Part shown: piece by piece, positions 9,362 through 10,001 of the stretch
Layout: each line of letters opens with the position of its first letter
Position numbering within the stretch: position 1 is the first letter of the stretch
Sequence record: OR844768
Reading direction: 5' to 3' (one strand)
DNA: 46,941 nucleotides
From: Escherichia phage ECO111 5-P
Translations under genes and position numbers: made by a program
Notes under the pieces: model-generated
What the model was told of the DNA's origin: nothing
The model's input: the letters and a program-made list of their open reading frames with translations, nothing else
Database searches by the model: none

Positions 9362-9469
9362 TCCTCTCTTGTTTGTTTGGTAAAAAAAGAATAAAGGAAA
9401 ATACACCACCAGTCAACACATTCCATCGTCACTATTGGGTTGACGCCATGGACAAAACGGCGTATAAAA

Positions 9470-9725
9470 ATCCCACAGGGAAGAAATTTCCCTTTCACAT
9501 CAGAAAGTTAGATAAACCCTAAATTTGCTAATTCCATGTTACGGGAAATAGGAACATCAATAAAATCAGATATTTAATCTCTATTTCACGTTCCTAAAAA
9601 ATGTGGGGGGGGGGTTAAAAAAAGTGAAAGATGAAAGATGATAAACACCCCCCACGGGAAATAGAAAAATGGGATGAAGCCGGAAGTCATTAAAAATAAA
9701 ATAGGTTTCACTTCCCGTAACAAAA
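9470..9725. repeat. iteron-like repeats (GTTACGGGAAATAGG / CACGGGAAATAG / inverted GTTACGGGAAGTGAA), GGGAA-N5-TTCCC palindrome and a G10 homopolymer (about 9605-9614)
   Basis: Repeats read directly from sequence in a ~590-bp non-coding region between divergent operons. Confidence 0.55.
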
Positions 9726-9942
9726 AAATCATGGATAACACAATTCTTTAACAAATAACCAGCTTAACTGCTGGTTTTCGTGTTTCTGTAGCGTAAGGTA
9801 TTAATATCTATAATAAATATAAAGAAGATCTTAATATACTTTATAGAGGAAATAAACAAAGGTTACTATTAGTAATACATGTAACTATACATGTAAGCTA
9901 GCATTCACTAACATTTAGTAGTGCTTTTTCTTTCTCTGCGTG

Positions 9943-9971
9943 TTGACGTAGAATCATCGTTGATGTAGATT
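9943..9971 (+). promoter_or_regulatory. sigma70-like promoter TTGACG-N17-TAGATT for plus-strand early ORFs
   Basis: -35/-10 hexamers with 17-bp spacer; contains shared motif TTGACGTAGA. Confidence 0.5.
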
Positions 9972-10001
9972 GAACTCATCGAAACAAGCGAGGGTGAAGA
10001 A

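Follow-up and report, generated by a model that had tools for sequence, protein, structure and literature searches.

Where does DNA replication begin in the siphophages related to Jersey and Sf11, for which no origin is described in the literature searched? The question is raised by the genome of Escherichia phage ECO111 5-P (sequence record OR844768), whose 46,941 nucleotides (nt) were analysed as one stretch that is referred to here as the window. In this Jersey/Sf11-like siphophage genome, whose nearest relative is Salmonella phage gmqsjt-1, a non-coding gap of 646 bp (9356-10001) has a replication operon on the minus strand to its left and open reading frames (ORFs) on the plus strand to its right. 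An earlier note, made from the letters of this DNA alone, had recognised an ORF-free gap at this place and had proposed an iteron-type origin in the divergent promoter region beside the replication genes; the gap is present, and the comparative evidence favours such an origin candidate. Our analysis, which was computational throughout, suggests that 9537-9722 is probably an iteron-type, dyad-symmetric replication origin, to which the phage's own primase-helicase, a protein of 777 amino acids (aa) encoded in the leftward operon, would bind by its C-terminal winged helix.

The centre of the locus consists of four copies of the word ACGGGAAATAG, in the order + - + -, around a run of ten G (G10), a 33-bp A/T-rich spacer and a run of six C (C6). 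The outer-left copy (copy 1, TGTTACGGGAAATAG, 9537-9551, plus strand) includes an exact ACGGGAAATAG at 9541-9551, the inner-left copy (copy 2, ACGTGAAATAG, 9581-9591, minus strand) has one mismatch, the inner-right copy (copy 3, 9654-9664, plus strand) is again exact, and the outer-right copy (copy 4, TGTTACGGGAAGTGA, 9708-9722, minus strand) is, over 11 nt, a perfect inverted repeat of copy 1. A (T)GTT prefix is found on the two outer copies only. G10 (9605-9614) borders the central spacer and is complementary to C6 (9648-9653; C8 in gmqsjt-1), and the spacer itself (9615-9647), with 21% G+C and GAAAGAT present twice, contains the dyad centre and is a candidate unwinding element. Between copies 1 and 2 there is a site resembling the consensus of integration host factor (IHF), AATCAGATATTTA (9564-9576, plus strand; pattern WATCARNNNNTTR), and to the right of copy 3 there are degenerate tandem copies, TGGGATGAA and CCGGAAGTC (9670-9688, plus strand), weak matches read from the sequence that may be the positional counterpart of CGGGAAGCCGGGAAGCGAACGGAAG in Sf11-type phages. 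When the nested pairs are considered, namely the outer copies (9537-9547/9712-9722), the inner copies (9580-9591/9654-9665) and the G/C runs, their centres all fall within 9622-9631, and the block is therefore one large imperfect dyad. The three to four repeat copies in both orientations around G10 that had been reported in the earlier note are thus found as four, with the coordinates of G10 corrected to those given above, and the C6 run, the GGGAA-N5-TTCCC palindrome, the AT-rich stretch with a duplicated ATACATGTAA and the hairpin terminator that it listed are all present as well.

Within the whole 46.9-kb window, ACGGGAAATAG has only three matches with at most one mismatch, all of them within 9541-9664, and the number of matches with two mismatches is only mildly above expectation (15 vs 8.8). 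Within 190 bp, one core is shared by two perfect 11-nt pairs, one direct and one inverted, each with an estimated chance expectation of about 0.02. When 9-mers were searched de novo, ACGGGAAAT was returned with five copies, whereas 40 dinucleotide shuffles gave 3.1 copies on average and never more than 4; 9486-9494 was scored in this search as a copy with one mismatch. It is the comparison with relatives, and not the copy count in a single window, that gives the decisive support.

When 9300-10100 was searched, 157 phage records were matched, with full coverage only by gmqsjt-1 (94.7% identity); most of the remaining records match only the final ~160 bases. Similarity to relatives ends at about 9401 on the left and returns at 9736-9757 on the right, and the ~350 bp in between appear, from the alignments, to act as a replaceable cassette. 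Without being alignable, these cassettes keep the same order of elements, which is a promoter, an outer copy (+), an IHF-like site, an inner copy (-), a G/C run, an A/T-rich centre, a further G/C run, an inner copy (+) with tandem copies, an outer copy (-) and a terminator, and the distance from the -10 hexamer to the T-run of the terminator is 285-322 nt across units. An A/T-rich centre between inward-facing copies is found in all repeat types. The type A word, ACGGGAAATAG, occurs only in the window and gmqsjt-1, which are 95% identical here; the type B word is (C)GGGAAGC(G), and the type C word is TGGCA(AA/TT)TAG. In individual relatives, some of which are given here by L numbers, the word is CGGGAAGC in Sf11, L018 and L034, GGGAAGCG in ECO95 and L032, GGGAAGC in L052 and L054, GGCAAATAG in Sa179lw and L017, TGGCATTTAG in YX3973, and G(G/T)(C/A)AAATAG in L055; more distant genomes have GACTTTAG, CTGTAAA and TTAGAAAT. 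Tandem direct copies are frequent, for instance CGGGAAGCCGGGAAGCG in type B genomes and CTATTTGCCAGCTATTTGCC in Sa179lw, and the symmetry is clearest in L054, where GCTTCCCGCTTCCC, C8, a 32-nt A/T stretch, G10 and CGGGAAGCCGGGAAGC follow one another.

The G/C runs at the centre are G10/C8 in gmqsjt-1, C8/G8 in L052, C8/G10 in L054 and G8 in the Sf11 type, and ECO95 and L032 are without homopolymer runs there. The G10 tract had been suspected of being a hotspot for slippage or sequencing error; the varying run lengths fit slippage, but an assembly error is unlikely in view of the runs at the equivalent place in gmqsjt-1, L054, L052 and the Sf11 type. A match to the IHF-like pattern lies 71-90 nt into the unit in 11 of 13 units (types A, B and C) and is the single match in 10 of the 13, L052 having the shared one and a second elsewhere; the strict IHF pattern WATCAANNNNTTR has no match in the window, where only the relaxed WATCAR form matches.

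Repeat arrays were also seen where the replication module differs. The Jersey-like genomes L005, L007, L010 and L030 have a different replication module with an unrelated or distant replication protein, and their arrays are located ~600 nt upstream of the 48-aa ORF, in the corresponding slot, each with a very AT-rich centre: GTTACCGG is present more than 10 times in both orientations in L005, GGGATAA makes up the arrays of L007 and L010, and CCTGCCCCACG that of L030. In L040-L049, L053 (Yersinia phage vB_YenS_P400) and L056-L058, the segment with the helix-turn-helix (HTH) gene, the primase gene and orf131 is inverted relative to the AAA_24, Gp157 and helicase genes, and the repeat block, although downstream of the primase gene, still directly precedes the conserved rightward promoter. 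When ACGGGAAATAG-N20-45-CTATTTCNCGT was scanned for, viral contigs gave 0 matches, and the 10 metagenome matches were rejected as unrelated long palindromes with no primase relative.

Which protein might read a word that differs among relatives? When 16 ORFs or protein segments between 1836 and 12024 were compared over ten related genomes for partition by repeat type, only residues 701-777 of the primase were found to partition with it. The identity of this segment to that of the window is 100% in type A, 84% in all five type B genomes, 79% in all three type C genomes and 66% in type D, and outside this segment the 777-aa protein shows 93-99% identity between types A, B and C. Among these three types the association of word with wing sequence is perfect and independent of overall identity. 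For example, the protein of YX3973 matches that of the window at 98% identity over residues 1-717 but at 77% in the winged helix, and the repeat word of this phage is another one; for L052 and L054 the overall identity is ~70%, yet they have the wing SHNVII and the GGGAAGC word as in Sf11; and L055, at 84% identity overall, has helix 3, the wing and the AAATAG word in common with type C. The C-terminal tail (~60-77 residues) is predicted to be a winged helix by AlphaFold models and by fold matches to winged-helix domains, and the domain (residues 700-777, encoded at 6387-6620 on the minus strand) is proposed as the repeat reader. Other candidate readers, namely the Cro/YdaS-like HTH protein (5723-5965), orf75 (9134-9355), orf134 and orf131, were rejected, as their alleles do not partition by repeat type.

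The earlier note had named conservation of the iterons in relatives as a check on its proposal and their lack of conservation as grounds for giving it up. Taken literally, the latter is what was found, the word being present only in gmqsjt-1, but the architecture is kept and the relatives' word follows the winged-helix tail, and the proposal of an origin is therefore strengthened instead of refuted. The two parts of the putative specificity pair, the repeat cassette (9402-9750) and the winged-helix coding end (6387-6620), are ~3 kb apart, and the primase core between them is ~99% identical across types. Matched swaps would therefore need two recombination events or co-evolution, and the lineages may represent a natural series of such swaps of specificity.

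The remainder of the 777-aa protein (6384-8717, minus strand) has Prim-Pol, PriCT_2 and DUF3987 domains by Pfam and PHROG assignments. DUF3987, here an AAA+ ATPase, is a family found with these primases whose helicase activity is a prediction (PMC5862659), and in the modelled structure the best solved-structure fold matches of the ATPase core are MCM subunits and Orc1/Cdc6 rather than superfamily 3 (SF3) helicases. A PDB sequence search gave no significant match for the 777-aa protein, and the family profile gave only 3 chance-level hits there (E 0.4-0.6). For the homologue search the full-length query was needed, the C-terminal fragment having returned 3 fragments only.

The repeats are enclosed in their own promoter-to-terminator unit (9440-9786, ~300 nt). 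A rightward promoter-like element into the repeat block (9440-9468, plus strand) consists of TTGACG, a 17-nt spacer and TATAAA, and TTGAC[ACG] with a 17-nt spacer and a -10-like hexamer is found at the equivalent position in 12 of 13 relatives, in sequence that is otherwise unalignable. The unit is closed by a bidirectional intrinsic terminator (9757-9786), a hairpin with a T-run that was scored on both strands, and its stem is altered on both sides among relatives (CCAGC/GCTGG, CCCGG/CCGGG, CCCGC/GCGGG). In the opposite direction, a sigma-70-like promoter of the replication operon (9388-9416, minus strand; TTGACT, 17-nt spacer, TATTCT) was identified by the promoter scan, and its sequence is kept in L001, L003 and L032, relatives with the same first gene. 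The placement of the repeats in a divergent promoter region by the earlier note thus holds as far as back-to-back promoters are concerned, but the repeats themselves lie within a promoter-to-terminator unit of their own.

Building on the anatomy established here, on its conservation, and on the replacement of the word and its association with a tail of predicted fold, we infer how the locus may work. The C-terminal winged helix of the 777-aa primase-helicase would recognise the ACGGGAAATAG copies, which point inward from both sides of the G10, A/T-rich and C6 centre. Two oligomers (rings) would load, one on each side, the A/T centre clamped by the G/C runs would melt, and the PrimPol domain would prime the exposed strands. 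Opening would probably be helped or regulated by a host IHF-like bend between the left copies and by transcription from 9440-9468 that is stopped at 9757-9786, and this terminator would also shield the early operon. A hybrid origin, in which the iteron dyad sits in a dedicated ~300-nt transcription unit whose RNA takes part in initiation, is possible, although we consider it rather doubtful. In such a hybrid, the transcript could form an R-loop or otherwise open the centre, and the G-run on the RNA-like strand (G10; G8-G10 in relatives) would aid the R-loop; alternatively, the transcript, which bears the same repeats, could titrate the initiator. With regard to transcript-activated or transcript-primed origins such as those of lambda, ColE1, T4 (ori(uvsY)) and T7, it is the promoter-like element with its exact 17-nt spacing in 12 of 13 units, followed by a conserved terminator, that bears comparison.

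Initiator repeats beside an A/T-rich region, with an IHF site among the repeats, are found in the iteron origins of theta plasmids (pSC101, R6K, P1) and in lambda ori, the latter being activated by transcription. In contrast to the theta plasmids, 9356-10001 contains no DnaA box (TTATCCACA) within one mismatch, and its repeats are inverted 11-mers instead of tandem 17-22-mers; unlike those of lambda, the repeats are not inside the initiator gene, and the putative initiator is itself a helicase-primase. In the origins of SV40 (large T antigen) and of papillomaviruses (E1), inverted sites flank an A/T-rich melting region and two hexamers assemble. These differ in belonging to eukaryotic viruses, in having an unrelated origin-binding domain at the N-terminus and in having no fused primase. 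They have been cited as functionally reminiscent of Rep of the Staphylococcus pathogenicity islands (SaPIs) (PMC7581432).

The likeness to the SaPIs is closer. The winged helices of SaPI Rep and PriRep5 bind iterons on both sides of an AT-rich centre in opposite directions (PMC9371898), and in the window, as in the SaPIs, short repeats in opposite orientation flank an AT-rich centre (PMC9371898, PMC7581432). Initiation in the SaPIs is by a helicase, which in PriRep5 is joined to a primase. Each island's own iterons are recognised through the C-terminal winged helix of this initiator, and a separate loader is not required. Correspondingly, the features of a SaPI/P4 alpha-type origin that are found here are repeats in both orientations flanking an A/T centre and a neighbouring putative initiator with a helicase-type ATPase and a predicted C-terminal winged helix. 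However, the ATPase here is DUF3987, an uncharacterised family with no significant sequence match to a solved structure; the repeats are ~11 nt long instead of 5-6 nt; and the block has G/C homopolymer runs and lies between a promoter and a terminator. Furthermore, the SaPI origin is immediately downstream of the initiator gene, whereas in the window two small genes (8714-9355) separate the block from the start of the gene, upstream of which it lies at a distance of 0.8-1.0 kb; among D/P400-type relatives the block is found ~0.4-1.4 kb downstream of the primase gene. P4 alpha also has 777 aa, an equal length that we take to be coincidental. In the single polypeptide of P4 alpha, a primase and a helicase are combined with a C-terminal winged helix by which repeated sequences of the origin are bound, and this layout is also that of pRN1 ORF904 (PMC2777425). 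In P4 alpha, however, a DnaG-type primase is joined to an SF3 helicase, whereas here an archaeo-eukaryotic primase (AEP) of the PrimPol type with PriCT-2 is joined to an ATPase of predicted MCM/Orc-like fold; the window has no further repeat site comparable to crr, all matches with at most one mismatch being within 9541-9664, and the P4 winged helix (1KA8) is absent from the top fold matches. ORF904, which has been proposed to be an autonomous initiator, and the prophage protein BcMCM are similar in having a PrimPol, a helical primase-associated domain, an AAA+ helicase and a C-terminal winged helix (PMC2777425, PMC4234260, PMC3273815, PMC2715239), BcMCM being a fusion of PrimPol with an MCM-like part (PMC3273815). 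In contrast, pRN1 has as its origin a stem-loop region that follows the gene and in which no cognate repeats were identified, and neither the SF3 ATPase of ORF904 nor the true MCM ATPase of BcMCM has a sequence-level relation to DUF3987 in PDB searches.

Several observations weigh against an origin read by the primase tail. The excess of repeats over shuffles in the window is modest (five copies against a maximum of four) and is absent in several relatives. Type A has two members only, and there is therefore no independent replicate for the association of the ACGGGAAATAG word. Identities of the winged helix overlap, as pairs with the same word go down to 78% and pairs with different words go up to 83%; types D-H have the wing SNRAI/V in common and differ in their words; and the winged-helix segments of L036 and L050 (residues 733-770) are identical, with words that differ in two central bases (TT vs AA). 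Moreover, the repeats are ~3 kb from the winged-helix coding end and do not adjoin it as in the SaPIs, and the -10 hexamer of the 9440-9468 element is without the usual final T, which is the reason why the promoter scan missed this element.

Could the repeats instead be an operator array, bound by the winged helix of the primase-helicase or by another factor, that only regulates the back-to-back promoters, for example in autoregulation of the replication operon, with replication starting elsewhere? The GGGAA-N5-TTCCC palindrome (9478-9492), a possible operator, contains two repeat-like half-sites that overlap the predicted start of the 9440-9468 promoter, Sf11-type phages have a repeat copy, CGCTTCCCG, inside the spacer of the equivalent promoter, and the distance of the block from the leftward promoter is 120-300 bp. 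As the promoter is overlapped by repeat-like sites, such a role would be compatible with origin function. As an explanation of the whole block it is unlikely, since most copies are 70-250 bp downstream of the promoter, the symmetry around the A/T centre, the G/C runs and the IHF-like site are unnecessary for simple repression, and the dedicated Cro-like regulator does not track repeat type. The promoter-to-terminator unit (~9476-9786) has also been considered as the gene of a ~300-nt non-coding RNA, a regulator or decoy in which the inverted repeats would be stems. The promoter, the terminator and the unit length are kept across unalignable sequences, and the plus-strand RNA is more stably folded than its shuffles (z = -3.2), but the opposite strand even more so (z = -5.5), as is expected for DNA dyads. 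Rfam 15 gave no match at gathering score, the only two hits of the permissive search of 9300-10100 having 17 and 14 bits where the gathering thresholds are 50 and 55, and RNAalifold on six type B units gave a covariation term of +0.44, with support only in the terminator and the invariant repeats and with covariation in the terminator stem alone. Mismatches are uncompensated in the partner copy (G to T in copy 2; TTCCAG in gmqsjt-1 and Sf11), RNA stems do not require one word to be reused at least four times, including tandem direct copies, and the word tracks a DNA-binding fold, all of which makes an RNA gene quite improbable.

Repeat arrays can mark packaging (pac) sites, and the terminase genes are located 2.7-3.4 kb to the right of the block, so that recognition by terminase was also considered. 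This is very improbable, as the word tracks the primase tail and the block is located at the boundary of the replication module; furthermore, the ends of the deposited Sf11 record mark no site here, being arbitrary because they cut through a gene. Least of all would we expect the repeats to be functionless chance matches in AT-rich spacer DNA: taken alone, the window has only the small excess of copies over shuffles and the mild excess of two-mismatch matches over expectation given above, but the architecture recurs with different words in many lineages, with element positions and unit length conserved. A coding function was rejected, as the longest ORFs of the unit lie on the minus strand, are F/L-rich, begin with TTG or GTG, lack conservation from one type to another, and shift in length and frame among 95%-identical Sf11-type genomes (78, 50 and 71 aa).

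To the right of the terminator, an AT-rich block of 155 bp (9787-9941, 27% G+C) holds a near-palindrome (9807-9825/9829-9847) and ATACATGTAA twice, at 9875-9884 and 9887-9896, 12 bp apart. From the terminator into the downstream ORF (~9736/9757 to 10200), this block included, identity is 88-94% where the repeat block is unalignable. This block may regulate the early promoter from upstream or may serve as a second site of unwinding. The rightward early promoter (9943-9971, plus strand; TTGACG, 17-nt spacer, TAGATT), also identified by the promoter scan, is family-wide, with 83-97% identity in nearly all of 35 related loci (L033 aligns only from 10000), and it is followed by the 48-aa ORF that starts at 10002. 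At the other end of the gap, the leftward gene most likely starts at ATG 9355 rather than at GTG 9409, because the former is the annotated start in gmqsjt-1.

The first gene of the leftward operon is orf73/75 (9134-9355, minus strand), next to orf134 (8714-9118, minus strand); further members on the minus strand are orf131 and genes for an AAA_24 ATPase, Gp157, DUF669 and a DEAD-box helicase, and the Cro/YdaS-like HTH gene is on the strand opposite to the operon. The products of the 8714-9118 and 9134-9355 genes are likely paralogues because both match PHROG 28700; both genes are hypervariable or absent in close relatives and do not track repeat type. For a 216-aa ORF at 10714-11364, neither a Pfam match nor a counterpart in any of the ten related loci was found, and this ORF may be an insertion peculiar to the ECO111 5-P genome. 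At gathering score, Rfam matches in the window were restricted to two adjoining tRNA genes elsewhere on the minus strand (35760-35832 and 35842-35926; 73 and 58 bits). The cumulative GC skew has its minimum at 9-10 kb, which agrees with an origin there but was not used as evidence because it is confounded with the switch in transcription direction.

The element in the ECO111 5-P genome is most likely a known kind of origin that is newly proposed for this phage group, whose genomes are 43-48 kb in size. It offers a concrete origin and initiator candidate for widespread enterobacterial siphophages, including Sf11, YX3973, Sa179lw, gmqsjt-1 and related Jersey-like phages, and it suggests a likely role for the DUF3987 ATPase family, a helicase by prediction (PMC5862659). 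Furthermore, the repeat words and the small differences in helix 3 and the wing that accompany them provide a ready-made set for studying the evolution of initiator specificity, and the series of words and winged helices could be used for orthogonal phage replicons.

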